Positions 9,968 to 64,000 of a stretch of DNA of 64,000 bases are shown piece by piece. The notes beneath the pieces are model-generated. The model ran no database searches, was not told the DNA's origin, and saw nothing but the letters and a program-made list of their open reading frames with translations. The position numbers were made by a program, and so were the translations under genes. The stretch is from a virus: positions 1 through 64,000 of the IMG/VR virus record IMGVR_UViG_3300031688_000003. One strand, written 5' to 3'. Every line of letters begins with the position of its first letter. The first letter of the stretch is position 1.

Positions 9968-9968
9968 A

Positions 9969-11461: not shown

Positions 11462-11504
11462 AAGCTTTAATTAAATTTGTTAATAAATGTGTTTGAAAAA
11501 TTAT

Positions 11505-11765
11505 TTAGATGTCATCCCTGTTGAAATACTCATCTCTGAGCTTATCATCATTGGATATATTATCTACACCATATTTTTTATCTGCTGATAAAGGTTTTAA
11601 TTCTGGTGCTTTACCTTTTGAATAAGGTTTATAAAATGGATCATTCATATCCATAGTGTAAGACTCACTGAGACAGTCTAATTCTTTTAATTCACTGTCA
11701 GTCATGTCTAGATATTGGTCTAGTGATAACTCTATTGTCCTTCCACTTGGTAATTGATATAACAT
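11505..11765 (-). CDS. hypothetical protein
   Basis: ORF track; preceded by a TAnnTTTG promoter. Confidence 0.7.
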   Translation of the reverse strand: MLYQLPSGRTIELSLDQYLDMTDSELKELDCLSESYTMDMNDPFYKPYSKGKAPELKPLSADKKYGVDNISNDDKLRDEYFNRDDI

Positions 11766-11788
11766 TTTATTACGTAAATTTAATTGTA

Positions 11789-11796
11789 CAAATCTA
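11789..11796 (-). promoter_or_regulatory. Bacteroidota sigma70 -7 element TAGATTTG
   Basis: Matches TAnnTTTG, 24 nt upstream of the 11765 start. Confidence 0.55.
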
Positions 11797-11869
11797 CATA
11801 ATTATACCTTTTGTTATACATAAAAAACTTGAGACAAGCAAACTTTTTACTAGTTATATAGCTAAGTGC

Positions 11870-12115
11870 CTACATAATAATTAAAAATCTACCTGACCTT
11901 TTAACATATCCCATGTCTTTTAGTTCTTTTATTTTCCTATCTACTGTTCTTTGACTTATATTAGCTTGATCAGCTATTGTTGCAATAGAAGGAAAACATT
12001 TTCTATTTTTATTTGCATATGTACATAATATGCTATAAATACCTTTAGCTTGAATACTAAGTTCAGGATCTTTTACAACACTGCTACTTACAATACCAAA
12101 CCTTTCTTTGGTCAT
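11870..12115 (-). CDS. helix-turn-helix protein (HTH_36-like)
   Basis: LSIQAKGIYSIL...CFPSIATIADQANISQRTVDRKIKELKDMGY. Confidence 0.8.
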   Translation of the reverse strand: MTKERFGIVSSSVVKDPELSIQAKGIYSILCTYANKNRKCFPSIATIADQANISQRTVDRKIKELKDMGYVKRSGRFLIIM

Positions 12116-43670: not shown

Positions 43671-44852
43671 ATGGATTCTATCCTTGAAAAAATCAAATCT
43701 TCTCTTAAATGGAAGAAGAACTCTGAGTATTGTGCAGAAAAGTTAAGCATCACAATAGATGACTATGATACATTAAAAGAATATGTAAAATCTAAAGAAC
43801 TACTAGATGATGGTGCATCATCATATGAGTATGACTTAGAAAAAGGTCAAGCAAAAATGGAGACAGTAAGTTCTACTGAACCAAAATCTCCTGAAGAAAT
43901 AATTGATATATTAAATATTGATATAACTCAGTGGAAGTTATCAAGTTATTGGAATAAACAAATGGGTGATCACTGGAGAGTTTCTGCAATGGTTACAAGA
44001 CTTAAAGATAATGATGTAGATAATGTTGCTGAATTATTAAAAGGGTTTAAACCTAAAACATATAAAGAAGTTAAAAGAATTAAAACTCCAGGTAAAATTA
44101 AAACAGCTGGGGTTTTATCATTACAGGACATACATTTTGGTAAAGAAGGGAATGATACTATAGATGAATGTTTTGAAAAAACAATTAAAGATTTAATGGA
44201 AAGAGCTTCTAGCTCACACCATATAGAAAAAATGTATTATGTGATAGGAGGTGATGTAATCAACATGGATACATGGAATGGCTCTACTACTGCAGGAACG
44301 CCTCTAGACAACTGTATGACAGCCACAGAGGCATATGTACAAGCTTTTGACGCCCTTCAGTGGAGTATTAACTACATTAAACAATTTTGTGATGAATTAC
44401 AAGTTATATATATACCAGGTAATCATGATAGATTATCATCATTTCATTTAGCTCATGCTTTATCTAAGTGTTTTGATAATCCAGAAATAGTATGGGATAC
44501 TGTTTATCTAGAAAGAAAAGTATTTGTTTATGAAGATAACTTCTTTGCATTTGAACATGGTGATGTTAATACTAAGAACTCATTACTAGTTTACTCTATG
44601 GAGTATCCAAGACAATGGGGTAAGACATTATTTAGAACATTATATACAGGACATTATCATCACAAGAAAAAAATAGAATATATAACTGAACATGAGAATA
44701 CAGGGTTCATGCTTAAAATATTACCAAGTCTTTCAAAGACAGATTATTACCATTATCATAATAAATTTATAGGTTCTAGGAGATCTGGTGTATTATCTTT
44801 ACATAGTCCTACTAAGGGTGAAATATGTGAATTAACTTATTCTCCAGAATAA
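43671..44852 (+). CDS. calcineurin-like metallophosphoesterase with N-terminal HTH-like region
   Basis: DIHFG, GGD, PGNHD, EHGD, GHYHH metal-binding motifs. Confidence 0.88.
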   Translation: MDSILEKIKSSLKWKKNSEYCAEKLSITIDDYDTLKEYVKSKELLDDGASSYEYDLEKGQAKMETVSSTEPKSPEEIIDILNIDITQWKLSSYWNKQMGDHWRVSAMVTRLKDNDVDNVAELLKGFKPKTYKEVKRIKTPGKIKTAGVLSLQDIHFGKEGNDTIDECFEKTIKDLMERASSSHHIEKMYYVIGGDVINMDTWNGSTTAGTPLDNCMTATEAYVQAFDALQWSINYIKQFCDELQVIYIPGNHDRLSSFHLAHALSKCFDNPEIVWDTVYLERKVFVYEDNFFAFEHGDVNTKNSLLVYSMEYPRQWGKTLFRTLYTGHYHHKKKIEYITEHENTGFMLKILPSLSKTDYYHYHNKFIGSRRSGVLSLHSPTKGEICELTYSPE

Positions 44853-47033: not shown

Positions 47034-50000
47034 ATGGCTAAAAAACAAACTCCAAACCCATCATTACCACAACAGACTTCATCAACAGAATCTAATCTGT
47101 TTATGAAAGGAATGATAAAGGACACCTTCCCTTCTATATCTGGAAAAGAAGTATGGGAACATGCTATAAATGTTATTAATAATTCAATTGATGGTGACAC
47201 TGGAGTTATAGGAAATGAACCAGCAAATTTTGAATGTGCAGAAATTCCATATACTATAATAGGGTCAATACATATTTATGGTGATCATTGGGCTATTTTT
47301 TCTACAGATGACTTTTCCTCTGAGATAGGTACATTTGATGATAGTAAATGTGAATATACAAGATTAATAAATGATCAATGTTTAAACTTCAACAGGGAAC
47401 ATTTAATAATAGGAGCTGCTAAAGAAAACTTTGAATGCAAGTATCAAATATATTGGGATGATTCAGTAAATCCATCTAGAACTTTAACACTAGAAGATCC
47501 TCCATATTTAAGAATTGAAGTATCTGGACCAAGTTTAAATGGTGCTCCTTGTTCTATATATGAAAACATACAACCACTTACACTAGATTGTGAAAGAATA
47601 AGACTAGCCCCTTTAATTGATACACCATGTTTAGATCTTCAAAAAGCTCCAGAAGGTGGTTCATTAAGAAATGGTATGTATCAAGCTTTTATTGCTTATA
47701 CTATTAATGAACAAGTATATGGAGACTTTATTGGTATTTCAAATCAACAGTCTTTATTTGAACATGATGATAGTGCAGGCTCTTTAATACTAACTTTATC
47801 ACACCTAGATAAAAACTTTGATAATTATAAACTTGTAATTTTAGGTAATAATCAAGAAGAATTTAAATTTTCTGAAGTTGGTGAGTATAGTACAGAACAA
47901 ACAACTATTAAACTAGATTATCTTGATCAAAAATTAAAGTCTGTTCCTACTGAGTATATGAATAAATTAACACCTGCATTAGAAAAGTCAAAAGGTATGT
48001 TTGTTGTCAATGACTATTTAGTTAGAACACAACCTACAAATCAATTTGATTTTAATTATCAACCTCTTGCAAATAGAATAGCTTGTAACTGGACATCTGT
48101 AGAATATCCAGCAGATTATTATTATAATGGAGGTAATAAACCAACATTCCTAAGAGACGAAAGATATGCATTCTTTATAAGATTCATATACAATACGGGT
48201 GAACGCTCATCATCATACCACATACCAGGAAGAGCTGCTACATACTATAGTGGAAGTGGTGTGTCTATGTTAGAAACTGATGTTATACCTGGAGATCCTA
48301 ATGCATTAGATCCTACTGATCAAATATTTAAGGTGCATAATACAGCATTTGTTTCACAATTAAATGTAAATACAGTACAACCTGATGGTGGAATTCTCAG
48401 GACTAGAGGTGAAATGGGCTATTGGGAATCAACAGAATTATATCCGCAAGATGCAGTTAGGTGGGGGGATCTGTGTGGTATGCCAATTAGACACCATAAG
48501 ATGCCTGATGAAAACACAGCTAATAATGGTACAACTGACAGAGCAACTCCAGGTGGAACTGGTATATATAATATTGCTGTAGAATTTACAGGTATACCAT
48601 GGCCAAGAGATAATGCAGGTAATCTAATACCTAACATTGTTGGTTATGAATTTTTAGTAGGATCAAGAGAAGGACATAAGTCTATTTTAGGAAAAGGTAT
48701 TCTTAAAAACATGGAACAATATATACCTTCTGATCCATCAGCAAGTGACGGATCTACATCTTTCTTTATACCTAATTATCCATATAATGATTTAACATCT
48801 GATCCATATATAAAAGGTCCTGGTGGTGGAGGTAGTGTAGGTTATGATAGTTGGTCAGGACTTGGTTATGAAGATTGGCTTCAAGGATGTGATAATCCAA
48901 CAGGTCCCTATAATAGATATTCAAATAGTGTATTTACATTTCATTCTCCAGATTTAATGTTTAATAGACCTTTCTTAAATGCATATGAATTAAAGTCATA
49001 TGGTGTTATATCAGGAACTCAAACAGGAAGATTTAAACCTTCAGAAAAACATCCAGGAGAAAAACTATTAAGAAACTCAACAGCTGTACTTGCAGCCTTC
49101 ATAGGTGTAGGATATGCTATATATGCCATGAGAGGTTCTACAGACCAAAAGATGACTACAGGACGTGTTCTGGATATGGGTTATAGAGAAGAAGGAGAAA
49201 TTACAAAACGTAGTGGAAATAATGGTACTTTTAGTGGAGGTGGTGCTTGGACAAATTTGGCTGGTTCATCTTATAATACAGGAACTTGGACTGGAGCAGG
49301 TGGTGGTAAAGGTACATTTAATGCATCAGCACCTAATAATGATAGGTGGCAATGGACTAGTGCTAATCAAATATCTGCAGCAAATAGAGCAAATTCACCT
49401 GGTACAGGTACTTATGATACTGCAGCCAATGGTTTGTTTCTTGGTTTAGGAGGAATTACTGGTGGAGCTGCATCAAATAAAGCAGGTGCTGTAACATGGC
49501 AAGCTGCACAAGCTACTAACTGGCAAGGTCAAGCTGGATCAATAGGACCTGGTCAAGAGATAGTTCAAAAAGGTACAAAGTTTAGTAATAAACCTTTTTG
49601 GATGGGTTTAATCAGTGGTGCACAAGAATTTATGAATTTTGTATCAACTGGTGGTCAAGAAATTATTGATTTAATTTATAATTTAACAAGCTTCAAACAA
49701 TATGTTTATAAATATAATAGTCATGGTTGGTACAGAAACATGTCAGCAAATCCAAATGGATCAATATTTAGACACTCCGTAAATAAATCAAGGTATTTAA
49801 ATGGTGCTATTTCTCAACTCACCCCAAGCATTAGAATTAATAATTTAAATAGACCTTTAACTGTAGCAGTTGAACTTGAAACTAATGGTAATGTAGATGT
49901 AAATGGACTACCCACTTCTAGTTTACCTTTACCTACGGGAGATAATTCTAAATATACTATAGGTACTGCACCAGGACAATGTGATTGGACTAACCCAGGA

Positions 50001-53000
50001 GGGGCAACTAGCTCAGGGATTGCAGCTCATTATTGTGCAATGAAGTATAATATAGATAATCAATATGGTCAACTAGAAGATATAAAACAAATACCTATTA
50101 GAGGATGCGTTGAATTTTTTGAAGACCAAATATTACTAGATGCAAGTGGTAACCCAATTATAAATAACTTAATAAGATTTAATTCTAAACCATTATTTGG
50201 TGGTGACTGCTATGTAAATAGATATACAGAGAAAGCTATTATGCCATTCTTCTGGGACTATTTAGCTGAAAATGAAAAAGATGGATTTGTATGGGATTAT
50301 AGATTATATCCTAATGTACCGTTTCCAACATATTGGATGAATACTGAAAAGTATAGACTTGATGAATTAACAAAACAGTTAGGTGGTGTTAATTTCGCTT
50401 TTGCAATAGCTTCAGGTTTTAATGGTGCCTTCCCTAATGATTATTATTACATGGATAGAGATCCAGCATCATGTAGTGGAGGTGGTTTATTTAGTAGCTT
50501 TAATGATGCAACAAATAGTAATCCAGGTTCATTATTTACTATACATGATGCATACATGTATCTTCACTGTAATGGAATTAATGATTTCTTTGTTGAGTCA
50601 GAATTAAATTTAGCTCAAAGAGATTGGGGGGAAGATATTGAAAAAAGACATTATGATAGTTTAACCTTTTCTGCATTGACAGATCTATTTCATGTAGATG
50701 GAATAAAGAAGGGTAATTATTATAAGTATGATAAGTCATTAAGTATTGAACAAAACTATAGTAGGACATTATCATGGGGGTTCATCCAGCCTAGATCATA
50801 TGATCCTACAGTAGCTGAAAAATGTTATATAACATGGAATAAAAGACTTGTGTATTCATTACAAGCTAAGAAAGAGGCTAAGAAGGATTTCTGGAGAGTC
50901 TTCCTTCCATTAAATTATAAAGAATTTAAGGACTCAGTTAATACTATTAAACCAATTAGCAAGACTGGTGCCATTGTATTATTTCCAAAACTTTCTCCAC
51001 AAATATTTACAGGTAATGATGAACTAACTACAGATGCTGGAACTAAAGTTGTTCTTGGTGATGGAGGATTATTTGCTGAAAGAAACTGGAGGGATATAGT
51101 AAACTCAGATATATCTCATGAATATGGATCATCTGAAAGTTCAAGAGCAGTGTTAAATACACCAATGGGATTATTTTTCATATCTCAAGAACAAGGAAAG
51201 ATATTTCAAACAGAAGGTAATTCACTAATCAATATTACTAATACAGGAATGAAGTGGTGGTTTAATAAATACTTACCATCACAACTATTAGCAACGTTCC
51301 CTGATGCTGAAGCATGTCCACAGATGATTGATAATCCAGTAGTATCTGCTGGTTGTCAAACTGTATATGATACAAACAATGATATTGTTTATTTTTCAAA
51401 AAGAGATTTTGCAGTAACTAATGCATTTGCAAATCAGTCAAACAACTGTATAGAGTATGTTCCATGTGAAGGGTTTTATCTAAATGAAACAATATGTAAC
51501 GGTGCATCACAAATAGTAACATGTCCAGATGGATATACTTATAATTCTGTTTCAGAAATGTGCGAGTTGATTACTTATGATTTACCTTTTGGACCACCAG
51601 CACCTGCATGTAAATTAGATATTGTTCTTTCTATTGATGCTTCATACTCAGTACCTTTACAATCTAATGTTAATAGCATGAGGTTAATTGTTCAAGGTAT
51701 TTTAGATGTGTTTGATAATGCTATGTCATTAGGTGATACACAAATAGGTATTATGGCTTGGGGAACTAGAGCATATGATGAAGGATCATTTAATGCTACT
51801 GCAATTGCATGTAATGGATTAAGAGCACCTGTAGCATTAACTTTTAACCCAAACTTATTAAATCAAACTACAGGTTTCATGAGTGAGTATACTTGTGCTT
51901 CTGGTACTTCAGCTTGTTGTCCAGGTGTACCTTGTGGTGGTAATGATTGTAATGTTACTGGGGGTACAGGATATGGAGATGCAGTATGGTCAGGTACAAA
52001 CTGGTTATTTAATCCTACACCAGGACCAGGTGGTACAGGTGCAAGACCTAATGTACCTAAAAAATTAATAATATTAAATGATGGTTGGGATGCAACATCA
52101 ACTGGTTGGGGTGGTACTAATCCAGATTCTACTGGAGCAGATAGAGCACTTACAAGACCTAATTATATAAACCTAGGTCAAACTTCTTCATTTGTAGCAA
52201 CACCAACAACACCTCCTATGGTAGCAACAGCTCCTGATACAGGTGTTGTAGGTAACATAAGTGCTGCACAACCTGATAACTTAGTTCAGTGGATACAAAC
52301 TAATATTCATGCAAATGCACAATATCAAGATCCTACTAATTCAAACTTTCTAGGTCAGTTAGAAATAATCCCTGGATGGTTAAAAAATAACAATACTCCA
52401 ACTGCAGCTGAAGAAGCTTATGCACAAAGTATTGCTGGATATGATGCTATAACAGGAGATCCTAATCCATATATGGCTGGTGACTTTCAAGCAGCTAATG
52501 TACAAGGTATTATAAATGACTTAGTTGAAAAAATATGTCCAGGTATTTTACCAAATTGTCCATCTGGTTGTACACCAGTTATACAAGGAGGTGTACCAAT
52601 GTGTGAATGTATAGATGAAGTTCCTGCTACATATGAAGATGTATTAACTTATATACCTTACCAATTAGAGAATCCTACATACTTCCAAGATGTTTCATGG
52701 ACAGTTAGTTATGATCCTAAAGCAAAAGCATGGATCTCATTTCATGATTGGCATCCTGAATTAGCATTCAATAGTATCAATCATTTCATGACATCTAAAA
52801 CAACAACAACTGAAATCCCACAATGTCCTCCTGGATATTCATTTAATAGTACTTTAGATGAATGTTGTATCACAGTAGCAGGATCTGATCCAGCATTTGT
52901 TGAAGTAAAATATATTCCATCAGATACAACTGTAGTAGATTCAGTCCAAACTGCTTTTTCAGTAGATACAGATATTGCATTAGTAATGGATGTATCTGGA

Positions 53001-54599
53001 TCAACTGCTCTACCTGGATGTATAATACCTTTCCCTACTAATTGTACATTTGGTGTACTTAGTGCACAAGTAGATTTTTGTACAGCATTTGTAAATGTTA
53101 TGTCTCCTGGTATGGCATCTGGAACTAACAATGTAAGAATTGGATTTGGAGTATGGGATAATGCAAATAGTGCTCAGGTAACAGGTTTAACAAGTAATGA
53201 TTCTACTCTAATAGATCCTATAGCAGGTTCAATAAGCACCTATGATGAAACGTCTGCTTCATATACAGCAGGAGGTACTAATTATGAAACAGCTGTATTA
53301 AGAGCAAGAGCAATGTTATCTGGATCAACAGCAACAAAAAAAGTTGTAATAATAATTACAGATACACAAAATAATACATGTGCTGCGTCCCCTCCAAATA
53401 ATATTTCTGCTGATTTATGGACTTGGAATGCAGCAGGTGGTGGTGATGTTGATACAATTGCTGTATTTGCTGATACTGTTGCTCCTGCAAATAATGGATG
53501 GTGGACTAATTTAAATTGTTTAGTTCAACTTGGTACTGCTGCACAAAGTATTGGTAATGATGCATTTGCAGTTGATTCTTCAAATTATGGAGATGTTGCA
53601 GTTAGTGTTATGAATTCACTTATTAGTTGTGATTGTCCAGTAAATACAGTTCCAGATATACCATCTATTCTTTGTAGTCCTGATCCTGGTGACCCATTAC
53701 CACAATGTGTATCATGTGAATGTCCAGCTGGATATACGCAAGTACCTGTTAATCAAGTTTGTAATTCATTAAATCCACCAACATGTAAGAAGGTAGATTG
53801 TAATTGTCCACCTATACCTGTATTAGATCCTTCATTAGCTACTACTTGGTTTGAGGCTGGAACACAATGTGATGATTTATTTTTAGTTGATACACCTGGT
53901 TATGTAAATCCAAATCCACTTATATGTAATTGGGAATATAAACAATGTGTACCTGCAAATTATACAGTTGGTGGTATGTGGAAACACAATGTAAGAAATG
54001 ATCTGTTTGTAAACTATTATGGAGAAGATTTCCCTTGGGAAGTTACACTAATAGAAAACACTGGTCAAGTTGTCAATACTCTAAGAAGTATAGAGTACCA
54101 ACAAGAATCATATGTATATAAGAATTTTAACTTACCACGTCCTCAGCAGCTTATAGGTACAGATAGATTCCATGATTTAGATTGGAACTTTGATGAAACA
54201 ATAATATATAATTCAGAACAGGTATCAGGATTATTAACTCTTGATCTTACTCCTAAGAATAATATTGTTTTACTTAATCAGTATCCTATAATTAATAATC
54301 CAACTGATATACAAATCCTATATTCTAAAGAAGAACAGAAATATAGATTTAATCAGTTCTGGGATATTACAGATGATAGAGGTGAGTTCACTGGAGTTGA
54401 AAGACCTATATGGATAACAACATTAAATGGGTATATTAAAAACTTAAATCAAGCAAATCTTAATTATATTAAAGCACCTTTGCAGCGTAAGAAGTTTAGA
54501 CATTACTATAATATGATTGTATTAAGAAAGAACGTATCAGGAGACAGAAAGATGTTACTTAAATTAAATAATACTAAAATGAATATATCATTTAGATAA
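47034..54599 (+). CDS. tail stabilisation/muzzle protein (P22 gp10-like) with two vWA insertions
   Basis: N-terminal FMKGMIKD...HAINVIN, propeller-type body, C-terminal KKFRHYY; MIDAS-like IDASYS and MDVSGS. Confidence 0.75.
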   Translation: MAKKQTPNPSLPQQTSSTESNLFMKGMIKDTFPSISGKEVWEHAINVINNSIDGDTGVIGNEPANFECAEIPYTIIGSIHIYGDHWAIFSTDDFSSEIGTFDDSKCEYTRLINDQCLNFNREHLIIGAAKENFECKYQIYWDDSVNPSRTLTLEDPPYLRIEVSGPSLNGAPCSIYENIQPLTLDCERIRLAPLIDTPCLDLQKAPEGGSLRNGMYQAFIAYTINEQVYGDFIGISNQQSLFEHDDSAGSLILTLSHLDKNFDNYKLVILGNNQEEFKFSEVGEYSTEQTTIKLDYLDQKLKSVPTEYMNKLTPALEKSKGMFVVNDYLVRTQPTNQFDFNYQPLANRIACNWTSVEYPADYYYNGGNKPTFLRDERYAFFIRFIYNTGERSSSYHIPGRAATYYSGSGVSMLETDVIPGDPNALDPTDQIFKVHNTAFVSQLNVNTVQPDGGILRTRGEMGYWESTELYPQDAVRWGDLCGMPIRHHKMPDENTANNGTTDRATPGGTGIYNIAVEFTGIPWPRDNAGNLIPNIVGYEFLVGSREGHKSILGKGILKNMEQYIPSDPSASDGSTSFFIPNYPYNDLTSDPYIKGPGGGGSVGYDSWSGLGYEDWLQGCDNPTGPYNRYSNSVFTFHSPDLMFNRPFLNAYELKSYGVISGTQTGRFKPSEKHPGEKLLRNSTAVLAAFIGVGYAIYAMRGSTDQKMTTGRVLDMGYREEGEITKRSGNNGTFSGGGAWTNLAGSSYNTGTWTGAGGGKGTFNASAPNNDRWQWTSANQISAANRANSPGTGTYDTAANGLFLGLGGITGGAASNKAGAVTWQAAQATNWQGQAGSIGPGQEIVQKGTKFSNKPFWMGLISGAQEFMNFVSTGGQEIIDLIYNLTSFKQYVYKYNSHGWYRNMSANPNGSIFRHSVNKSRYLNGAISQLTPSIRINNLNRPLTVAVELETNGNVDVNGLPTSSLPLPTGDNSKYTIGTAPGQCDWTNPGGATSSGIAAHYCAMKYNIDNQYGQLEDIKQIPIRGCVEFFEDQILLDASGNPIINNLIRFNSKPLFGGDCYVNRYTEKAIMPFFWDYLAENEKDGFVWDYRLYPNVPFPTYWMNTEKYRLDELTKQLGGVNFAFAIASGFNGAFPNDYYYMDRDPASCSGGGLFSSFNDATNSNPGSLFTIHDAYMYLHCNGINDFFVESELNLAQRDWGEDIEKRHYDSLTFSALTDLFHVDGIKKGNYYKYDKSLSIEQNYSRTLSWGFIQPRSYDPTVAEKCYITWNKRLVYSLQAKKEAKKDFWRVFLPLNYKEFKDSVNTIKPISKTGAIVLFPKLSPQIFTGNDELTTDAGTKVVLGDGGLFAERNWRDIVNSDISHEYGSSESSRAVLNTPMGLFFISQEQGKIFQTEGNSLINITNTGMKWWFNKYLPSQLLATFPDAEACPQMIDNPVVSAGCQTVYDTNNDIVYFSKRDFAVTNAFANQSNNCIEYVPCEGFYLNETICNGASQIVTCPDGYTYNSVSEMCELITYDLPFGPPAPACKLDIVLSIDASYSVPLQSNVNSMRLIVQGILDVFDNAMSLGDTQIGIMAWGTRAYDEGSFNATAIACNGLRAPVALTFNPNLLNQTTGFMSEYTCASGTSACCPGVPCGGNDCNVTGGTGYGDAVWSGTNWLFNPTPGPGGTGARPNVPKKLIILNDGWDATSTGWGGTNPDSTGADRALTRPNYINLGQTSSFVATPTTPPMVATAPDTGVVGNISAAQPDNLVQWIQTNIHANAQYQDPTNSNFLGQLEIIPGWLKNNNTPTAAEEAYAQSIAGYDAITGDPNPYMAGDFQAANVQGIINDLVEKICPGILPNCPSGCTPVIQGGVPMCECIDEVPATYEDVLTYIPYQLENPTYFQDVSWTVSYDPKAKAWISFHDWHPELAFNSINHFMTSKTTTTEIPQCPPGYSFNSTLDECCITVAGSDPAFVEVKYIPSDTTVVDSVQTAFSVDTDIALVMDVSGSTALPGCIIPFPTNCTFGVLSAQVDFCTAFVNVMSPGMASGTNNVRIGFGVWDNANSAQVTGLTSNDSTLIDPIAGSISTYDETSASYTAGGTNYETAVLRARAMLSGSTATKKVVIIITDTQNNTCAASPPNNISADLWTWNAAGGGDVDTIAVFADTVAPANNGWWTNLNCLVQLGTAAQSIGNDAFAVDSSNYGDVAVSVMNSLISCDCPVNTVPDIPSILCSPDPGDPLPQCVSCECPAGYTQVPVNQVCNSLNPPTCKKVDCNCPPIPVLDPSLATTWFEAGTQCDDLFLVDTPGYVNPNPLICNWEYKQCVPANYTVGGMWKHNVRNDLFVNYYGEDFPWEVTLIENTGQVVNTLRSIEYQQESYVYKNFNLPRPQQLIGTDRFHDLDWNFDETIIYNSEQVSGLLTLDLTPKNNIVLLNQYPIINNPTDIQILYSKEEQKYRFNQFWDITDDRGEFTGVERPIWITTLNGYIKNLNQANLNYIKAPLQRKKFRHYYNMIVLRKNVSGDRKMLLKLNNTKMNISFR

Positions 54600-57500
54600 T
54601 GGCATATAGTATAGACGGATATAAAAGAGATAGTAAGGATGTAAAGAAACCTTCCAACTTGATACCTTCAGGTAACATTACTATGAAGGGTGTAGACTTT
54701 CCTGTGATGGGTACAGACAATCTTGGTAATCAACAACTTATGCAACCTGGTCTTGATTATCAATTTCCTGGTAGTGAAGTCTTTGAACAACCTATGCAAA
54801 ATCTAACGCAAGATAAACCTAAGAATCAAGTAAAGAAAAGGAAAGTAGATAGAGATAATAAATTAATCACAAACTGGACTTCAGAAATGGGTGATGTATC
54901 TTCACACAAAATGACTAGTATGTCATTTACTGATGATGATGGTAATCCAATATATGTTGCTATTCCAATGTTGTTTCCTACTATTGAAGGACAAGAAACT
55001 CCTGATCCAGCATCATGGACTCAATTTGCAGAAGGTGATGAGATGTCTGCTTTTGAAATGGCTATGCAAAGAGGTGAAGTGTATTACTTTAATTCTGAAC
55101 AAGAATCACATAAGTTTGCTAAAGGTTCTTGGAAAACTCCAAACTTAAAGAAAAGAGATGGTGGTTTAATAAAGCATCAAGACATAGGGTCTAACAATCA
55201 TATTATAAATAATAGAGACTTAAGTGACCCTAATAGGAAGTTTATGAAGCCTACAATAAACTTAAGTAATTATGATGAGCTAGAAGAAACATTAGGAGAT
55301 ACGTCTTGGGTGGACATAATGTCAAAAATGTCTGAGGAAGAGTTTAACAATTTTGTTGCACCTTATAGTAAAAGAACAGATAGTTTAAACAATCTTAAAA
55401 GGTTTACAGGTGATGAGAGATGGTGGGCTGGTAATCTTGCTAATGTTATTTCTGATGAAGAATATGCAAAGGCAAATGAAAATCGTAAATGGACAAGAGA
55501 CAACCATAGAAAAGGGAACCTTCCTAATTATAGTGAAGTGGCACCACTTGGAAAATCTACAGAAGATGTATTTTATGATGCTGAAAAAGCTTACTATAAT
55601 ACACCAGTACACACTAAAGAAGAACTTAATGCTGACTTTGATACTGCTTATCCTTATACATTTAATTCAGTTGCTGGAACGGATCCTTTAAATAAGATAC
55701 CATGGAAGAATGAGATGAAGGATGATCCAGAAAAGTGGGAGGGTTCGTGGTCTGATTATATAAGAAGTACAGATATACAACCTGACTATTATGAAATAGG
55801 GGACATAACCCTTGCTGAAGAAAGTAATCCATTTCATTTTGTATATGACGGTGGAGATCAAGATGGAGAGACAGTTAATACAGCAGTTCCAGATAAAGGG
55901 ATAAAAGATATACAAGATGTACGTAGTCATGATGAATATATGAAATGGTATGATCATCATAAAAAGAGCGGTGTTCTTAATAATAAATCTAAAAAAGATA
56001 TGGATTATTGGGAAGCTTTAACTGATAAAGATAATAATGTATGGACATCTAACTTTAAATATACAGATGCATCACCAAGATATAAGGAACTAGATTTCCT
56101 TGAAAACCCTAATATGAATATATCAGATGGGGAAAGAGGGAGATTATCTGATAGATCTGAACAGTCGTTATCAAGATTTGAAACATTAACGGGTAGAGAT
56201 AGAAAGATGTATAATGATAACCATTTAAATGAAATGGAATATTTTAATTCAATTGGTATATTTGAAACTCCTTTAGATAAACCTATTGCCTACTATCCTA
56301 AAGAAGAAAGGATGGAGTTAATGAAAGTATTAAATGATTATGAAAAGAAACAAAATTCTGAAAATACAGCTTGGACAATAGATTATAAAAATTCTGAGTT
56401 TTATGGTAAAGAAAGAACATATAAGTATGGTGGTTCACTTCCAAAAGCTCAATTAAAGCAAGTTAAGAATGCATATGCTTTAACTAAGAGTTTAATTAAA
56501 GGTAAGCAGTTAGGTAAGGTTTTAAATAAATCATTAAAACTTAATGAATTTATTCCTAAAGCATCAAAGGCTCCAATCATACCAAAAAATAAAATAGCTT
56601 ATGTAACTCCTATAAATACAGATGTAAACATAAACATAGGTAATGATATAATATCTAATAACAAAACTGTAAATGCTGATAATAAATTTAGTTTACAATC
56701 AGATGTCTTTAAGAACAAAATACCATTAACAAGAGTATTAAGTTCTAAAGGTTTAAGATTTACGGATGGTAAATTATTTAGTTCAACAGAACCACATACA
56801 CATTATAAATCAGACAGCAGAGGTGAGGAATTTCCTCTTCGTTTAAAATCAACAAATAGAAATACCACACATTGGTCTTATGGTCATATAGGTAATCCTG
56901 GACATGGGGGTGGAAGTTGGTCAAAGAAGTCTACAGCTATCATTAATGATTATGAAAATTTGTCAAAATCTGGACTTGCCCTAGATCTTGATCCAACTGA
57001 TACATGGTTCTATTCTAAAGGTAATTTTGAAATACCTGCTAATTCATTAATCTTGACTAGAGATAAGACGTTATATAAGAAAATAAAAAAAGAAACAAAT
57101 ATTACAAATATAAAACTATTTGAAAATACTAATAATGAAGATTTTGAAAGTATTGTAAACTCATATTCTACAAGAGGAGGAAAAGGAGCATATACTAGAC
57201 CAACGGATGATATGATAAATCCTAAAGATCAGTTTTTTAATGCAGGAGAAGGTGAAATGATAATGAGAGACTATATGATAAAAAACTATAGTAAAGGAGA
57301 TGATGTATCTTTAACACAGACTGCGGATCACTATAAACCTCATCAGTGGCAAGGACATGATTTTGATTGGGTACACCCCTTTACTGGTAAAAAATCAGGT
57401 ATTACAACAATGCATCCAGATTTTGATCATTCTTATATGGATCTTGGAGATCCTTTTGGAGGAGGTCAGAGTAAGGCACACTCTGGTTCTCCATTATCTA

Positions 57501-60500
57501 CTATAGAAAGAATGGAATATAATTGGGGAGATAATATGACAACTAATCATGGATTATACAGTAGTAACAACAGATGGGGCAATGGTGATAGATCAGGAAG
57601 CTTAGATATATTAGCAAAATTACCAAAAACCATACAAGTAAATGAAATGGAGAAGGTAATGAAAACCTATAAAAATCAACGTGAAGGTCTTAGACTTCAA
57701 CAAGAACTAGCAGAATTAAACGGGTTTAAATCATATAAAGAATTCAAGAACTCAATATCAAAACAAGAATGGTTAGATTTTAAGAGAGATGGTGGCTCAC
57801 TAAACAAAGCACAATGGTGGAATCCTAAGAATGCATATGCTTTAGCTAATACTATATCTAAATCATTTAAACCAGCTAAATCACTTCTTCCTAAACCTAG
57901 TTTTAAAAATATAAACTACCAAAAATTATTACCTTTTACTGAATCAGGTTCTACTCTTGTTCCTCAAACCCATATGAGTAGTGGGAAGGAAGGAACTAGT
58001 ATGGATCTATCAGAGACATTAAATTCTATTTATGCTGATAACAAACCTATGTGGTTTGGTCCTACTGCAACAAGTAATAGATATAGAATGACAGATGATA
58101 ATAATAAATTTATTCCAACAATTCCTGGACAAGGTGGACTTTTTCAAGTAGGTTCTGGAAGACTTGGTAATACAGGTAAACCAGGTTTTGATGAAATACC
58201 ATTTACAGAAGCAACAATGCCATTTGGTGGTCTGGCAAATGATGGTTACCACCTTAATCTAGAAACTGGATTGCCTAATTACAATGATCCACTAATGGAT
58301 CACAAACTTTTAACAAAAAATGCTTTTCAAAATAAGATTGATGGTGTTTTTAATCCTAATACTAAGTTTAAAATATTTAAGAGTGACCTCTCCAAAGGTA
58401 ATCATGCAATGCACCAGAAATGGTCAGACAAAGAACTTGCTAAAATTAAAGCAGATGGGTATGATGCTATTCAACTTGTAGATCAAAATGGTAATCAGAT
58501 AGAAAATATATTACTTAATAAAGAAAAGTTTAAGATAAATAAGATCAATGATATGGATGTACACATTGACAATCCTGAATTCAAATATGGTGGATCACTA
58601 CCTAAGGCTCAATGGTACAATCTAAAGAATGCATATAATATCGGTAAGGGTTTAGTAAATACAATAAAGAGTCCTTTTATTAATGATTTAGTGCAAGGTA
58701 GTAATAAACTCTATAGGGGTATAGGACCAGCTGGATATAATAGTGCAGTAAATACTGGTAAGATACTATCAAATGTAAACCCAACTGCAGTAAATGAAGG
58801 TGCTTTTAATTTAACAAAGAACTTTGGAAATAAAACTTTTTTCACTCCTAATGTTGAAACAGCAAGTAAATATGGTGATGGTTATATAGCTGAAATAAAT
58901 AATGATGTTAATGATTTTAGTAATAGATATAATTCAGACTGGAGTCAGTTTACAACTGACCCTGTTTTCTTAAGTCAATCTAACATATATAAAATGAATA
59001 TGTTAGGAAATTATAAAAGAATACTTTCTCAAAATACAGTAGGAGATCATAGTAAAATAAACTTTTTAGATAATGTTAAACTTAGGACAAATTATACATC
59101 TAGTACAGGTTTAGATTATTATGGTCATAGAAATGTTAAACATAATATAAAAGGAGGATGGCCTACACAGTTAGAGGTTGAAAAACTAAAAAAAGATTCA
59201 GGTTTAACACTAACACAAGATAACTTAAGAAGTTATGTAGAAAAGATTGGTAAAGTTGGCGGTGGTAAATATCCTAAAACAACTTTATATAGATATGGTG
59301 ATATGGCTACAAATGCAGCTGGTAATAAAGACATGGGTTACTATTCAGCAGATCCACTTGATCCACTTAGATACAGTGAAAGAGCAGATAGAACTTTTAA
59401 TGGAAGTGTTTTTAAAATTGATGTTGAAAATGAATTACTACCAGAATTTTATAAAGGAATAGGATTTGGTAACCAAGGTAAAGAACCAGGATTTCAATCA
59501 GGAACATTATTTAAAGAATTTGAAGTTCCAGAAGATTTTTTAGGTAAATTTGGAAATCAACAAACTTTCAAAACTTTATCTGATTATAAAAAATGGCTTA
59601 ATACAGTTAAGCAATCTGGAGGATCATTAACTAAACATCAAGTTCCTAAATTAATTAAAGGTGCATTAGACTTAGGTAAGAAGGTGAAGAATATTATTTC
59701 TCCTAAAAATGTTAACTCAATTATAGATTGGAGTAAAGTCAGTCCTGCAATATTAGCTAATAAAAACTTATTAAGTGAATATGCTGATATAGAAATGGCA
59801 ACTAAAGCAAATGCAACATGGATGAAGAATGATGATGGTACTTCTTTCTGGGGTACACCTCAACAGTTTATTCAAGTAAATAGTGAGGCCTTTAAAAACT
59901 CTTATCCAGAAGGTTATAAAAGAGTATTCAGAGGTGAGTCAGGTACTTTGAAATTAACAGATCCTCTTTATTCAGGAGCTGCAGATATAGAATCAGGTAA
60001 TAAAGGTATATTTACAGCAAATGAAGGTTTAGCTAAACTATATACAAACGATTATAGATTAGGGTCAAATAGTAGTATTCTTCAATTAGCAATACCTAGT
60101 GTTAGTGATGGTAGCAAATACTTAAATATAAACGGTCTAGGTAATGATTGGACAGATCTTAGTTCTATAGGTACTACAAAAAAGACTCTTGAACTAAATA
60201 TAAAGAATTTAGAAAATAACATAAAGAAGGATGCAGAAGGATTTCAATGGGCATCTGGCAGTGGTAGTTTAGAAAGTTATGATGTAAATAAACACTTACA
60301 AAGTTATAAAGATTTTTACAATAACTATGATGAGATAGTTGCTAATCCTATCTATAAGAAATTACTTGAGTTTAAAGAAGCTGCTTGGGAAAATGACAAA
60401 ATTCTTAATGGGGGAAATTTAGCAGGACGACAAAGTTTTGGAACTGGAGATGTAGGTGACTTTATGGAAAAATCAGGTTTAAATAATATAAGATTAAACT

Positions 60501-62488
60501 ATATAGATGATGGTGGTTTTGGAGATGTAACACTTAACAACCAGATACCAGGTAACTATCTAAAATCTCTAACAAATAACAATGGTAGATTTAATCTAAA
60601 AAACCCCAACATGAATAGACAAAAAGGAGGATCACTACCAAAAGCTCAATTGCAATATTATGATAAAGCTAAAAAAACATATGATTTTGTTAAAGGATTA
60701 TGGACTGTTGCTAAGCCTGTTTCAAAACTTGTAATACCAGGAAGGTCAGCTACTGATGTGGCTCATAAAATAAAACCATTAATTAATAGTTACCAAAAAC
60801 CAAATTCTGCTGGTGTTGCAAGTTTGATAAATCCTAACTGGACTGTTGATGAAGGTGGATTATATGAAGGTATGGATAGTAGAGTTAGAACATTTATAGA
60901 ACCAGGCCAGTATGGAATAAATGAACCTATAAGACTAATGGATGGTAATACTAGATTTCATTATGGACAGAGTCAAGGAAAAGATTGGGACGAATGGTAT
61001 AGAACATTTCAGCATAATAACCAATCTTTATATCCAGAGATAGCTGAAAAAAATCTTACTCTTGAAAATGGAACATGGAGACCTAAAACACAGCTTGAAC
61101 TTGATGATGATATACCAACAGAAGTTTGGGATCCTGTACAACAGAAATTTGTTAAACAAAATTTGAAAACAAGACCCTTTGCTGATCCCACATCCCTATA
61201 TAGAGCTGTTAATGCTCCTGATATTCAAACTGCTGAAAAGTTTGGAACTACAATTCCTTCACTCAATTCTGGTGCAGATGGGAGAAGGACAGGATATACC
61301 GACTTACAAAAAAACACTCCATATGATGTTTTATTTACAACACCCAATGCAGGTTGGATAGGTGGTTCAGGTGTTGATGATCCATATAATTTATTTAATT
61401 TATATGCAAAAAAAGATCAAGGAAAATTTATAGTTAAAATGCCAAGAACAAATGGTGCTGTTGAGAGTTTAACTCAAATTAATAATAGGACAGATATTTT
61501 AAACAATTCTCAATATCCGTACAGTGGAAACACTGGTTCAGTTTGGAATGAAGCAACTGGTAAATTTGATATACCTACACATCTTGGTTCAGGTATATTC
61601 AATACAGTCTCTGGTAAGCCTGATTTAAGTTTAATACCAGAAGGATCAATTGTTAATCCAAATTATTCAAGTTTTAATGGTAACCAGATAACTCCAATAT
61701 TTGGAACAAAAGGAACAACAGTTAGAAACGCACAAGATGTATTACCAATAGAAGACTATTTCAAAAAACTAAAAGAAGATCCTAATTGGAAATTTAATAA
61801 AGGAGGATCTGTAAAAGCTCAATATGTAGGTGAAACTAAAGAAGATATAGATTGGACAGGTACAACTCAAGGTGAGATACCAAGCAATGAACCAGACTTA
61901 GATCTTTTAAAGCAAGGTGTTGGTTATGCTGAAAGTCTTAATGGTGAGTTGATGATTAATTCTCAATCTACTGCAACAGGATTATATGGTCAAAGATTTT
62001 CTGAAGTAAAGAAAGGTAAATTATATGATGGAACAAGAGAAGAATTTGCTGTAGATCTTGATGCTCAAAACTCTTTATTTGAACAAAGATACAATGGAGA
62101 AATAAAAGATATACCAGGATTAAAACAAAGTGGTATAGATCTATATGAAGAGTATAACACACAAATAACAGACTTTCCATACTCAACAACTGAAGTTGCT
62201 GCACTGGTAAACTTCATAGGTAGACAAGGTACAAGAGACTACCTAGGATACGTTCTAAGAGACGGTAATACATTAGAATCAGTATTCCCTACTAAGTATG
62301 GATCAAAAGCAAATCAGTCAAATAAGACTCCAAATGAATATATCACTAAATTTAATGAAGGTTTAAATATAAAAAAGAAAGGAGGTGAAGTAGATAAGCT
62401 TACTGAAAGATTGATAAAGAAATATGAAGAAGGAGGAACACTTACACCTGCAGGAACTAAACATTTAAAGTCTCTAGGGATGATATAA
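54599..62488 (+). CDS. modular virion cargo polyprotein with repeated GGSLxKAQ linkers, ART-like domains and a lysozyme-like domain
   Basis: Position after the muzzle; seven linker copies; Y/F-R-G, aromatic-S/T and GYDAI...E motifs; AES...STATGLYGQ. Confidence 0.65.
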   Translation: MAYSIDGYKRDSKDVKKPSNLIPSGNITMKGVDFPVMGTDNLGNQQLMQPGLDYQFPGSEVFEQPMQNLTQDKPKNQVKKRKVDRDNKLITNWTSEMGDVSSHKMTSMSFTDDDGNPIYVAIPMLFPTIEGQETPDPASWTQFAEGDEMSAFEMAMQRGEVYYFNSEQESHKFAKGSWKTPNLKKRDGGLIKHQDIGSNNHIINNRDLSDPNRKFMKPTINLSNYDELEETLGDTSWVDIMSKMSEEEFNNFVAPYSKRTDSLNNLKRFTGDERWWAGNLANVISDEEYAKANENRKWTRDNHRKGNLPNYSEVAPLGKSTEDVFYDAEKAYYNTPVHTKEELNADFDTAYPYTFNSVAGTDPLNKIPWKNEMKDDPEKWEGSWSDYIRSTDIQPDYYEIGDITLAEESNPFHFVYDGGDQDGETVNTAVPDKGIKDIQDVRSHDEYMKWYDHHKKSGVLNNKSKKDMDYWEALTDKDNNVWTSNFKYTDASPRYKELDFLENPNMNISDGERGRLSDRSEQSLSRFETLTGRDRKMYNDNHLNEMEYFNSIGIFETPLDKPIAYYPKEERMELMKVLNDYEKKQNSENTAWTIDYKNSEFYGKERTYKYGGSLPKAQLKQVKNAYALTKSLIKGKQLGKVLNKSLKLNEFIPKASKAPIIPKNKIAYVTPINTDVNINIGNDIISNNKTVNADNKFSLQSDVFKNKIPLTRVLSSKGLRFTDGKLFSSTEPHTHYKSDSRGEEFPLRLKSTNRNTTHWSYGHIGNPGHGGGSWSKKSTAIINDYENLSKSGLALDLDPTDTWFYSKGNFEIPANSLILTRDKTLYKKIKKETNITNIKLFENTNNEDFESIVNSYSTRGGKGAYTRPTDDMINPKDQFFNAGEGEMIMRDYMIKNYSKGDDVSLTQTADHYKPHQWQGHDFDWVHPFTGKKSGITTMHPDFDHSYMDLGDPFGGGQSKAHSGSPLSTIERMEYNWGDNMTTNHGLYSSNNRWGNGDRSGSLDILAKLPKTIQVNEMEKVMKTYKNQREGLRLQQELAELNGFKSYKEFKNSISKQEWLDFKRDGGSLNKAQWWNPKNAYALANTISKSFKPAKSLLPKPSFKNINYQKLLPFTESGSTLVPQTHMSSGKEGTSMDLSETLNSIYADNKPMWFGPTATSNRYRMTDDNNKFIPTIPGQGGLFQVGSGRLGNTGKPGFDEIPFTEATMPFGGLANDGYHLNLETGLPNYNDPLMDHKLLTKNAFQNKIDGVFNPNTKFKIFKSDLSKGNHAMHQKWSDKELAKIKADGYDAIQLVDQNGNQIENILLNKEKFKINKINDMDVHIDNPEFKYGGSLPKAQWYNLKNAYNIGKGLVNTIKSPFINDLVQGSNKLYRGIGPAGYNSAVNTGKILSNVNPTAVNEGAFNLTKNFGNKTFFTPNVETASKYGDGYIAEINNDVNDFSNRYNSDWSQFTTDPVFLSQSNIYKMNMLGNYKRILSQNTVGDHSKINFLDNVKLRTNYTSSTGLDYYGHRNVKHNIKGGWPTQLEVEKLKKDSGLTLTQDNLRSYVEKIGKVGGGKYPKTTLYRYGDMATNAAGNKDMGYYSADPLDPLRYSERADRTFNGSVFKIDVENELLPEFYKGIGFGNQGKEPGFQSGTLFKEFEVPEDFLGKFGNQQTFKTLSDYKKWLNTVKQSGGSLTKHQVPKLIKGALDLGKKVKNIISPKNVNSIIDWSKVSPAILANKNLLSEYADIEMATKANATWMKNDDGTSFWGTPQQFIQVNSEAFKNSYPEGYKRVFRGESGTLKLTDPLYSGAADIESGNKGIFTANEGLAKLYTNDYRLGSNSSILQLAIPSVSDGSKYLNINGLGNDWTDLSSIGTTKKTLELNIKNLENNIKKDAEGFQWASGSGSLESYDVNKHLQSYKDFYNNYDEIVANPIYKKLLEFKEAAWENDKILNGGNLAGRQSFGTGDVGDFMEKSGLNNIRLNYIDDGGFGDVTLNNQIPGNYLKSLTNNNGRFNLKNPNMNRQKGGSLPKAQLQYYDKAKKTYDFVKGLWTVAKPVSKLVIPGRSATDVAHKIKPLINSYQKPNSAGVASLINPNWTVDEGGLYEGMDSRVRTFIEPGQYGINEPIRLMDGNTRFHYGQSQGKDWDEWYRTFQHNNQSLYPEIAEKNLTLENGTWRPKTQLELDDDIPTEVWDPVQQKFVKQNLKTRPFADPTSLYRAVNAPDIQTAEKFGTTIPSLNSGADGRRTGYTDLQKNTPYDVLFTTPNAGWIGGSGVDDPYNLFNLYAKKDQGKFIVKMPRTNGAVESLTQINNRTDILNNSQYPYSGNTGSVWNEATGKFDIPTHLGSGIFNTVSGKPDLSLIPEGSIVNPNYSSFNGNQITPIFGTKGTTVRNAQDVLPIEDYFKKLKEDPNWKFNKGGSVKAQYVGETKEDIDWTGTTQGEIPSNEPDLDLLKQGVGYAESLNGELMINSQSTATGLYGQRFSEVKKGKLYDGTREEFAVDLDAQNSLFEQRYNGEIKDIPGLKQSGIDLYEEYNTQITDFPYSTTEVAALVNFIGRQGTRDYLGYVLRDGNTLESVFPTKYGSKANQSNKTPNEYITKFNEGLNIKKKGGEVDKLTERLIKKYEEGGTLTPAGTKHLKSLGMI

Positions 62489-62567: not shown

Positions 62568-64000
62568 ATGGCAAAAGAATTTCCAGATAATAAAACTTTA
62601 GAAGTTTACCAGCAAGGTGGTGCTACTCAGAGTGTTAACTCATGTCCAGAAGCTATATCTGATGACATGATAAATATAGATAATAGAGAACGTTCTATTG
62701 TAAGATCTAACTATAGTAAATCAAATACAGAAAGCAAATGTGGAAATTGTATCTTTTTTGACATATCTAATAGGATAAAAAAGTGTGCAGATACTAAGTC
62801 AGATAATAAAGGATACTGCTGGGATCAAGAGTTTGTATGTGAATCTCAAAATATTTGTGATATGTGGGAAGAAGGTGGTCCAATCAAGTCTAACAAAGAC
62901 TCATATGCACAAGATGAATCCTCTAATGAGTTTGAACAAAATAAAGCAGAAGTTGAACAGATACAAACTCAGAAACAGATGCCTGTGTTTAATGAGTCTC
63001 AACAACAACCAATGGCTCCGCAACAAGGTGCACCACCTCAAGCAATGCCTCCTCAACAACAAGCTCCTGCACCACAAGAACAAATGCAACCTTCATTTGC
63101 ATATGGTGGATCTTTAAGGAAGGCTCAAGAGCAACATGAAACAAATCCTATAAATCCTGTAACAGGATTACCTTTTGAAGATGATATGTTGGCAGCAAAG
63201 AAAGAAAGAGATTTACAAGCTGCAAAAGAAAGAGAAGCAATATTAGCTCAACAAGGTCAAGATAATAATACAGATATATATGATGAAGCAAATCCTAAAG
63301 AAGCAGGTTCATCACTTAAAGATAAATATAAAAACTGGAGAACTAAAAGAGCAATAAAAAAATATCAAAAGAGTTTAATCCCAGAAGCTCCATTTATGAT
63401 GTATAACTCTGATCCTTCACAAGGTGTTCTAGGAGAGATAGGTAATTGGATGAAAAGTGCGAAGAAAGACTTTACTACTAATTGGGATAATAATAATAAG
63501 AAAAGTAACTATCAACAATTTAAAGTTTCAAATCCACATGATGATGTAAGATTCTTTGATCAAGATAATCCTGATGCACCACTGCTCAACTATGGCCAGA
63601 AGAATTCTAATGATTATAACAAGTTCTCTACTGACAGAACATCAGCATTTCCAGAACTATATCAAATATCATCTATGGATAATGAAGGTAACATAAGTTA
63701 CACAGGAGAGAAGTTGTTAGGGGATATGGTTGAAACAGAATACATGCCTGATGCTGTTCACATTCAACATACTGAAGATGGAACAGGAGTTACAGGAGCA
63801 TACATATATACTGGAATGAGTGATGCTGGAAAAAAAGAATATGAGTTTGTTCCTTTTGATAAAGAAAATCCTACTCAGATTTCAGTTGGACCATCTAAGC
63901 AAAAACGTGCTGAACAAGAAATGGCAGATAAGAATATATGTATAAATGCAGGTGGTGAATGGGATGCTGGAGTATGTACATATCCTGATGAGACAACTAA
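62568..64000 (+). CDS. putative virion cargo protein, partial (absent from ORF track, no stop in window)
   Basis: Manual translation MAKEFPDNKTLEVYQQGG... open to the window end (477 codons); Cys domain, Gln/Pro linker, FAYGGSLRKAQ. Confidence 0.8.
   Translation, partial: MAKEFPDNKTLEVYQQGGATQSVNSCPEAISDDMINIDNRERSIVRSNYSKSNTESKCGNCIFFDISNRIKKCADTKSDNKGYCWDQEFVCESQNICDMWEEGGPIKSNKDSYAQDESSNEFEQNKAEVEQIQTQKQMPVFNESQQQPMAPQQGAPPQAMPPQQQAPAPQEQMQPSFAYGGSLRKAQEQHETNPINPVTGLPFEDDMLAAKKERDLQAAKEREAILAQQGQDNNTDIYDEANPKEAGSSLKDKYKNWRTKRAIKKYQKSLIPEAPFMMYNSDPSQGVLGEIGNWMKSAKKDFTTNWDNNNKKSNYQQFKVSNPHDDVRFFDQDNPDAPLLNYGQKNSNDYNKFSTDRTSAFPELYQISSMDNEGNISYTGEKLLGDMVETEYMPDAVHIQHTEDGTGVTGAYIYTGMSDAGKKEYEFVPFDKENPTQISVGPSKQKRAEQEMADKNICINAGGEWDAGVCTYPDETT

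Follow-up and report, generated by a model that had tools for sequence, protein, structure and literature searches.

The window analysed here, the first 64,000 nucleotides (nt) of the IMG/VR virus record IMGVR_UViG_3300031688_000003, carries an uninterrupted open reading frame (ORF) for a protein of 2629 amino acids (aa), named P0001, in which eight modules are strung together by a short recurring peptide, the junction tag (Table 1). The full record spans 119,271 bp at 31.8% G+C, is rated 100% complete by CheckV and comes from an uncultured marine crAss-related podovirus-type phage. P0001 is probably a polyvalent virion cargo or ejection protein, its modular architecture being very probable (about 85%), and the tag may, more tentatively, mark sites at which the chain is processed. 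A preliminary description of this DNA had listed seven Gly-Gly (GG) linkers, and all seven peptides were recovered exactly; the junction coordinates in Table 1 begin at their GG. It had also taken them for seven copies of one linker, which holds for six, junction 1 (KKRDGGLIKHQ) being only a degenerate relative of a family element, K-R-G-G-G-L-L-x-K, that opens a zinc ribbon in most relatives. Two further degenerate copies had been proposed near the end: KKKGG is a general junction before the C-terminal tail, and YEEGG falls inside that conserved tail. The modules, described earlier as unrelated and about 190-450 aa long, measure 188-454 aa and have no mutual similarity by BLASTP. Both ends are composite. 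M1 consists of a widespread beta-rich N-domain (residues 1-69) and an optional second sub-domain (residues 85-189), and M8 of a conserved domain with an E-S…G-x-Y-G-Q signature, the KKKGG junction (nt 62381) and a helical tail.

Table 1. P0001, its modules and junctions, and the adjoining ORFs (positions in the window unless stated; HSP, high-scoring segment pair; HSP limits are residues of P0001)
Feature	Position	Strand	Length or peptide	Evidence or remark
P0001, modular (probably polyvalent virion cargo) gene	54599..62488	+	2629 aa	ORF; mosaic homologues
M1, constant N-terminal end	54599..55165	+	~188 aa	eleven HSPs (1-189) stop at residue 189
Junction 1, degenerate	55160..55180	+	GGLIKHQ	
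M2	55166..56434	+	423 aa	homologues found only up to residue 275
Junction 2	56429..56452	+	KY-GGSLPKAQ	
M3	56435..57796	+	454 aa	common to six homologues in other contexts; HSPs 595/608 to 1066/1073
Junction 3	57791..57814	+	RD-GGSLNKAQ	
M4	57797..58594	+	266 aa	HSPs 1062-1338/1339 in at least 8 proteins
Junction 4	58589..58612	+	KY-GGSLPKAQ	
M5	58595..59623	+	343 aa	two sub-modules (residues 1332-1475 and 1485-1675)
Junction 5	59618..59641	+	QS-GGSLTKHQ	
M6	59624..60631	+	336 aa	common to at least 20 proteins
Junction 6	60626..60649	+	QK-GGSLPKAQ	
M7	60632..61807	+	392 aa	sub-boundaries near residues 2196 and 2323
Junction 7	61802..61822	+	NK-GGSVKAQ	
M8, constant C-terminal end	61808..62485	+	227 aa	~20 HSPs from 2405/2433 to 2629
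Second junction-bearing, putative cargo ORF (start)	62568..64000, to genome position 67532	+	1654 aa	
Upstream structural gene, phi4:1 gp042 homologue	47034..54599	+	2521 aa	fixes synteny

The recurrence of the tag is far beyond chance. The pattern GG.{0,1}[LIVM].{0,1}K[AH]Q has 7 matches in P0001, compared with a mean of 0.0024 and a maximum of 1 in 5000 shuffles of the protein. The codons of the motif differ synonymously at every position among the copies, which indicates that selection acts on the peptide, and on our preferred reading a conserved partner must therefore recognise the tag in trans. Several other origins of the repeat were considered and rejected: a recombination signal conserved at the DNA level (the codons vary), a Shine-Dalgarno-like GGAGG within the gene (again the codons vary, and a start codon is missing downstream), a signal-peptidase site between A and Q (there is no hydrophobic region upstream), and self-cleavage between Gly and Ser (the Ser is conserved in only 65%). 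Across 170 family proteins (189,542 residues), L-P-[KR]-A-Q was found 126 times, and LPKAQ(-x-G), not GG, is the invariant core in the clade of P0001. Among 100 unique instances, the positions that are not fixed are biased towards P (81%), S (65%) and a G two residues after the Q (+9, 66%), with K/F/Y at -3, K/Q/R at -2 and Y/D/E at -1 upstream; the flanks outside these positions show no conservation. In family members that lack LPKAQ, aromatic-[QK]-x-G-G still has a frequency of 0.78 per 1000 aa, against a chance rate that we estimate from typical residue frequencies at ~0.02 per 1000 aa, and this looser form is also present in gp040 of Cellulophaga phage phi4:1 as well as in a sister phage's 3329-aa orthologue. 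A basic amphipathic helix had been proposed to follow five of the linkers. In P0001 this is borne out for 5 of 7 segments (net charge +2 to +7 over 28 aa, high helical hydrophobic moment), and family-wide the trend is modest, with a net charge of at least +3 after 30% of instances compared with 13% of background windows. A motif-string search of the searchable literature found no published description of the peptide.

The distribution of the tag is equally narrow. In the whole genome, the strict and general motifs are limited to three consecutive ORFs, P0001 and the ORFs at 62568-67532 and 67535-71260, which together hold ~14-15 copies. About 7-8 of these are in the second and third ORFs, several of them after P/Q-rich low-complexity stretches; for instance, such a stretch just precedes the junction FAY-GGSLRKAQ at nt 63105 of the second ORF. 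A degenerate DNA pattern for KYGGSLPKAQ was found in 16 viral contigs, always within long ORFs, where by our own rough estimate ~0.01 matches would be expected by chance, and had 0 matches in 596 Gb of prokaryote genomes (~186,000 species).

Homologues reveal how the chain is assembled. A search of 5.8 billion proteins returned 25 large homologues, all partial matches that cover 7-42% of P0001 at no more than 86% identity. The preliminary description had suggested looking for a linker conserved among homologues with differing modules, and in most of the 25 K-x-G-G-[SQ]-L-P-K-A-Q does sit between modules that differ from those of P0001. It had likewise expected domain boundaries to match the linkers, as they do: homology blocks to ~40 relatives begin and end at junction peptides (BLASTP), with segment limits at those given for M1, M3 and M4 in Table 1 and at residues 1332-2162, 1485-1675, 1667/1676-2005/2018, 2196-2410 and 2405-2629. 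The homologue P0004 is 63%, 47% and 92% identical to P0001 in three separate blocks, and such unequal identities point to recombination. Nearly all relatives share the first ~190 and the last ~225 residues, and the middle is variable. Judged by these alignments, P0001 is a series of swappable modules between two constant ends, with the junctions as swap points. Five of the 16 tag-bearing contigs form one clade with the P0001 genome, since their capsid proteins are 79-83% identical to its own; against the 2629 aa of P0001, their orthologues measure 513, 1511, 2057 and 3329 aa and occur in the same gene order. The 3329-aa (G003) and 513-aa (G002) orthologues are without LPKAQ. The G003 record (245,646 bp) contains its capsid gene and its DUF2201 gene twice each, ~121-127 kb apart, and is probably a concatemer or double assembly of a ~120-kb phage. 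Two other tagged giant proteins, the homologues P0182 and P0183, have another N-terminal domain and match the SET (lysine methyltransferase) domain of Pfam, so the tag is independent of any single N-terminal end. Shorter stand-alone forms of M4-M6 were found in two proteins only and therefore provide no informative split-gene evidence. A tblastn search of 50,697 GenBank phage records with P0001, M1, M8 and the family member P0039 gave no match, nor did a related-locus search of viral contigs with the whole P0001 protein.

The constant ends define a wider family. The N-terminal ~68 residues of P0001 matched 2252 clusters among 1.84 billion representatives (phmmer, E<=1e-3), in proteins of 67-2805 aa. 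Most of these carry a four-cysteine zinc ribbon (K-C-x2-C-…-C-H-K-C) that ends …C-H-K-C-G-G-S-A-L-P-K-A-Q-x-G, and they end in a conserved helical tail (…YDKLNRVYY…PNYIMT…). A leader, …G-L-P-G-G-P-N…, precedes the N-domain in most members (P0039, P0078, P0129, P0171 and others). P0001 has neither the zinc ribbon nor this leader. An AlphaFold2 model of P0171, a 378-aa member, was built on an alignment of 97 sequences and has a predicted local distance difference test score (pLDDT) above 90 in the beta N-domain, which is followed by the zinc ribbon, and again above 90 in the helical tail. Its first motif lies at the edge of the zinc ribbon with disorder after it, and its second in a stretch of pLDDT below 50 that separates the middle region from the C-terminal tail. 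An equivalent model for residues 1480-2030 of P0001 reached a mean pLDDT of only 53 and was poor, with two motif regions below 50; a helix was predicted in it right after the motif at residue 1674, and a fold search with it returned nothing above Z 4. The placement of the motif in or beside a disordered linker is thus a prediction of the P0171 model, not of P0001. Against the PDB, the P0171 model gave only weak cupin-like matches to its N-domain (Foldseek E>=0.1, VIA Z<=5) and did not match crAss001 gp45. Sequence searches of the PDB (phmmer and profiles) found nothing significant for P0001, the M8 alignment, the N-domain family profile, ORF 47034, ORF 39337, the third tagged ORF or the first half of a downstream 5127-aa ORF.

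Evidence for a place in the virion comes from phi4:1. The family model matches the phi4:1 'structural protein' S0A572, which is gp040, in BFVD (Foldseek E 1.3e-6), and the N-terminus of gp040 is 42% identical over 59 aa to residues 4-56 of P0001 (pairwise E 8e-9). Both gp040 (895 aa) and gp042 are annotated as structural from virion tandem mass spectrometry (MS/MS; KC821632). Since P0001 shares its N-domain with the MS/MS-verified gp040 and has a gp042 homologue upstream, its presence in the virion is a well-founded inference, and by analogy it would be ejected at infection. Beside gp040, the MS/MS-verified phi4:1 gp041 (9752-11971, minus strand) has a lysozyme-like N-terminus and two HExxH motifs (HEFTH, HELNH), and is therefore a candidate virion-borne peptidase of this cultured relative.

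The gene neighbourhood is that of a crAss-like cargo locus. Terminase, portal and capsid genes lie upstream of P0001, and homologues of phi4:1 gp042, gp043 and gp045 directly upstream; the portal protein has 33% identity to its counterpart in a Leptolyngbya phage and 22-27% to those of crAss-like phages and Cellulophaga phages phi4:1 and phi17:2. Giant ORFs downstream of the tagged ORFs match crAss001 gp47, gp50 and gp49, and this position indicates that the tagged ORFs fill the slot of crAss001 gp45 and gp46. The proposal that P0001 follows the muzzle gene in a crass cargo position is thereby supported, by positional analogy, for the cargo slot and not for the muzzle itself, as no muzzle homologue was detectable by sequence and no link of crAss001 gp44 to the ORFs of this genome was found. 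The 2521-aa upstream ORF, whose residues 1980-2115 weakly match a von Willebrand A domain, may be its counterpart. Downstream, the 5127-aa ORF (genome 74784-90167) matches crAss001 gp47 at its residues 2148-2274 and gp50 at 3932-4017, and looks like two RNA-polymerase-associated cargo proteins fused into one. It is followed by a 1870-aa homologue of the RNA-polymerase subunit gp49 (genome 90170-95782, E 2.8e-18) with a weak PD-(D/E)XK match. Further upstream, a 2198-aa ORF (32648-39244, plus strand) contains leucine-rich repeats (LRR_4, E 1.7e-20) together with an EndoS-type leucine-rich-repeat domain and fn3, and probably encodes an unusual receptor-binding tail protein. An ORF resembling DNA-repair exonucleases (43671-44852, plus strand; phrog_704, E 3.4e-41) lies amid the structural gene block.

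The modules had been described as effectors, and for some of them this finds support through their relatives. No usable Pfam or PHROG match was obtained for P0001 as a whole, for any single module or for the four giant ORFs next to it. Homologue segments aligned to M5b (residues 1485-1675) and M6 match ART-PolyVal at E 3e-6 and 1.6e-5, below the curated cut-off, and one relative does so at E 7.6e-13; Atlas leads from M6 to clusters of ADP-ribosyltransferases (ARTs) are weak (0.82 and 0.79). Some modules are probably ART-like on this evidence. M8 has an Atlas score of 0.90 to an SLT cluster and its invariant columns include the E-S…G-x-Y-G-Q signature, and it may possibly, if weakly, resemble a lytic transglycosylase; a profile search of the PDB with M8 gave no match. 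Modules added in relatives include LysM, YkuD, SLT, PG_binding_1, SET and kinase domains, and several of these relatives carry HExxH modules. An effector role is plausible from these similarities, and for P0001 itself the case is partial.

With this architecture in hand, a mechanism can be outlined. The constant N-terminal beta domain and the constant C-terminal domain with its helical tail would probably serve entry into and exit from the particle. The six modules in the middle would include host-modifying enzymes and would be cassettes gained, lost and swapped by related phages. Each joint would be an unstructured linker with the motif aromatic/basic, K/Q, x, G-G, S, L-P-K-A-Q, x, G, and the chain would be cut at or near the Gly-Gly, in the head or after ejection, into separate modules, each with (S)LPKAQ at its start and often a basic amphipathic helix after it. 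That the junction tag is such a processing site is a conjecture, to which we give a probability of roughly 40%. The K/Q-x-G-G format resembles the sites of Gly-Gly-directed proteases (SUMO Q-T-G-G, adenain). In relatives, one chain combines wall-directed modules (LysM, YkuD, SLT, PG_binding_1) with others whose expected site of action is the cytoplasm (ART-PolyVal, SET, kinase), which argues for cutting. A zincin-type motif, YHEAFH, is conserved between crAss001 gp47, which has been detected in virions, and the 5127-aa RNA-polymerase-associated ORF. For crAss-like phages, a zincin-like protease has been proposed and the fused RNA-polymerase polyproteins are considered 'likely cleaved' (10.1101/2020.03.07.982082).

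Several observations weigh against a cut at the tag. Gly-Gly had been put forward as the key signal, yet it is absent or shifted in 49 of the 126 LP[KR]AQ instances (39%), as in KYG-AE-LPKAQ and CGGSA-LPKAQ. Boundaries near residues 1480, 2196 and 2323 of P0001 have no tag. Neither the strict nor the general motif occurs in the capsid, portal or scaffold-position ORFs or in the fused 5127-aa RNA-polymerase protein. The search for a Gly-Gly-specific protease, which the preliminary description had recommended for C39 and C48/C5 types, found none: Pfam models for C39, C48, C5 and C57 gave no match at E<=1 in a six-frame translation of the 119-kb genome, and those for S77, S78, C80 and MPTase-PolyVal had no match in it either, although a very divergent member could escape these eight models. 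In crAss001, YHEAFH is present and the junction tag is absent from gp44-gp50, which leaves no specific tie between this zincin and the tag. Packaging without processing is known for the giant N4 virion RNA polymerase (PMC5512222). The candidate proteases of this genome are all zincin-like, namely the YHEAFH region and a putative metallopeptidase. The gene of the latter (116812-117978, minus strand) combines a DUF2201_N zincin (E 6.8e-20) with a VWA-like DUF2201 domain (E 6.4e-16); it is 56-74% identical in four sister phages and absent from phi4:1, a distribution that shows it to be a gene of the clade and no more.

The shape of the tag adds a further point on the same side. Its conserved footprint covers 12-13 residues, mainly C-terminal of the Gly-Gly and centred on LPKAQ-x-G rather than GG, and resembles a docking motif more closely than the site of a protease. 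The tag could accordingly be an uncut docking or cargo-loading peptide, each copy of which binds a conserved virion component (the capsid interior, portal, scaffold or tail lumen), with the chain being drawn into the procapsid, packed away one module at a time and threaded out later. The capsid-targeting sequence of T4 and the cargo-loading peptides of encapsulins are analogues of such a role. Longer proteins carry more tag copies, 1.0 per 1000 aa as against 0.2-0.5 per 1000 aa in shorter ones, and the conservation of the tag matches that of the capsid protein (~80% identity) while the cargo is hypervariable. Its predicted disorder is typical of short linear motifs, and both the confinement of its DNA pattern to viral contigs and the lack of a protease detectable by Pfam models are as this role would have it. 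However, the binding partner remains hypothetical, the tags sit strictly at joints and not elsewhere in disordered regions, and the G003 and G002 orthologues manage without LPKAQ, which is therefore not required to package this protein family. On balance, we consider docking rather unlikely.

Another possibility is a passive role as a flexible Gly-Gly hinge that has capping residues and no dedicated partner, the tag being kept because cassettes recombine successfully only at neutral linkers or because the chain unfolds and threads more easily. Homology breakpoints that coincide with tags, linkers that are predicted to be disordered and distant relatives that retain only the looser aromatic-K/Q-x-G-G are all in keeping with a hinge. 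However, a near-invariant L-P-K-A-Q encoded by synonymous codons across otherwise unrelated proteins is more constraint than a hinge needs, and the tag DNA is too short and too dissimilar (24 nt with variable third positions) for homologous recombination, so that this explanation is improbable. Reading of the tag after ejection by a host factor, be it a periplasmic or cytoplasmic protease, a chaperone or an enzyme that modifies the invariant Lys or Gln, would agree with the invariance of both residues, the failure of Pfam models to find a phage protease and the absence of the tag from the phage's own capsid and portal proteins, but it is purely inferential, the exact tag occurs in none of the ~186,000 prokaryote species genomes and hence no host protein uses the same tag, and we regard it as very improbable.

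Returning to the proposed cut site, the idea can be taken one step further. The tag would then be an address label, and any module placed between two tags would be loaded into the head, ejected and released as a separate (S)LPKAQ-tagged effector by a Gly-Gly/LPKAQ-directed enzyme of an unrecognised protease family or by a hijacked enzyme of the host. We hold this extended form to be doubtful; if true, three genes would give rise to ~15 separately acting proteins at infection. By injecting proteins before or together with their DNA, phages decide the opening minutes of infection, and in crAss-related phages such cargo amounts to megadaltons. The tag provides a sequence handle with which cargo modules can be found and delimited in metagenomes, and it predicts a conserved partner, whether a protease or a docking site. 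Should the tag be sufficient for loading or release, this would explain the free exchange of effector cassettes, and chosen proteins could be loaded into the phage particles of laboratory phage-host systems.

Among known systems, T4 Alt, a packaged ADP-ribosyltransferase, the T4 internal proteins and the inner-body proteins of phiKZ are processed in the head, where gp21 cuts after L/I-x-E in T4 and gp175 recognises S/A/G-x-E in phiKZ. The parallel with T4 Alt had been drawn before, and it is sound insofar as these proteins are injected, as P0001 would be, and like it bear a short conserved motif, there read by one enzyme. It breaks down at the protease, whose gene is known in T4 and phiKZ and whose motif is also found in capsid and scaffold proteins; in the phage of P0001 no S77 or S78 member was found with Pfam models and the capsid and portal proteins are without the motif. 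The T4 proteins are, moreover, single-module, whereas P0001 is a string of modules. A string of modules is found in MARTX toxins, effector arrays that are set free when an internal C80 cysteine protease cuts their linkers. They share with P0001 strain-variable unrelated modules, unstructured linkers and constant delivery regions, but are secreted bacterial toxins whose simple Leu-X linker sites differ from a 12-residue tag, and the Pfam model for C80 has no match here.

In crAss001, the cargo proteins C1 (gp45) and C2 (gp46) lie, like the tagged ORFs, between a large tail-end structural gene and the gp47/gp49/gp50 block; both have been detected in virions, and ejection in a partly unfolded state has been proposed (PMC10172136). 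Unlike P0001, crAss001 gp44-gp50 are without junction motifs, gp45 (842 aa) and gp46 (534 aa) are not reported to be modular, and neither has a BLASTP match among the ORFs of this genome at E<=0.01. The phi4:1 gp040 resembles P0001 in its homologous N-domain, its slot downstream of a gp042 homologue and its F/Y-Q-x-G-G peptides, and differs in being shorter, in its other modules and in lacking the LPKAQ extension. In architecture, P0001 fits the polyvalent proteins of phages and conjugative elements, which contain many (2-15) domains per chain and are predicted to be packaged in the head and injected; ARTs are the enzymatic domain found most often in them, sometimes in many copies on one chain, and autoproteolysis by a zincin (MPTase) has been discussed (PMC5512222). 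P0001 likewise is a giant multi-module chain among virion genes, with at least 8 modules as set by homology breakpoints, a mosaic architecture that varies between relatives and putative ART-PolyVal-type modules. It differs in having no Pfam match of its own and in that the ART-PolyVal matches of its homologues are mostly below the curated cut-off. The polyvalent-protein paper describes no junction motif and no constant ends, and linker, glycine, Cellulophaga and Flavobacter go unmentioned in it (PMC5512222). P0001 would therefore be a polyvalent crass-type cargo protein, a known kind, set apart by a junction tag that has apparently not been described before.

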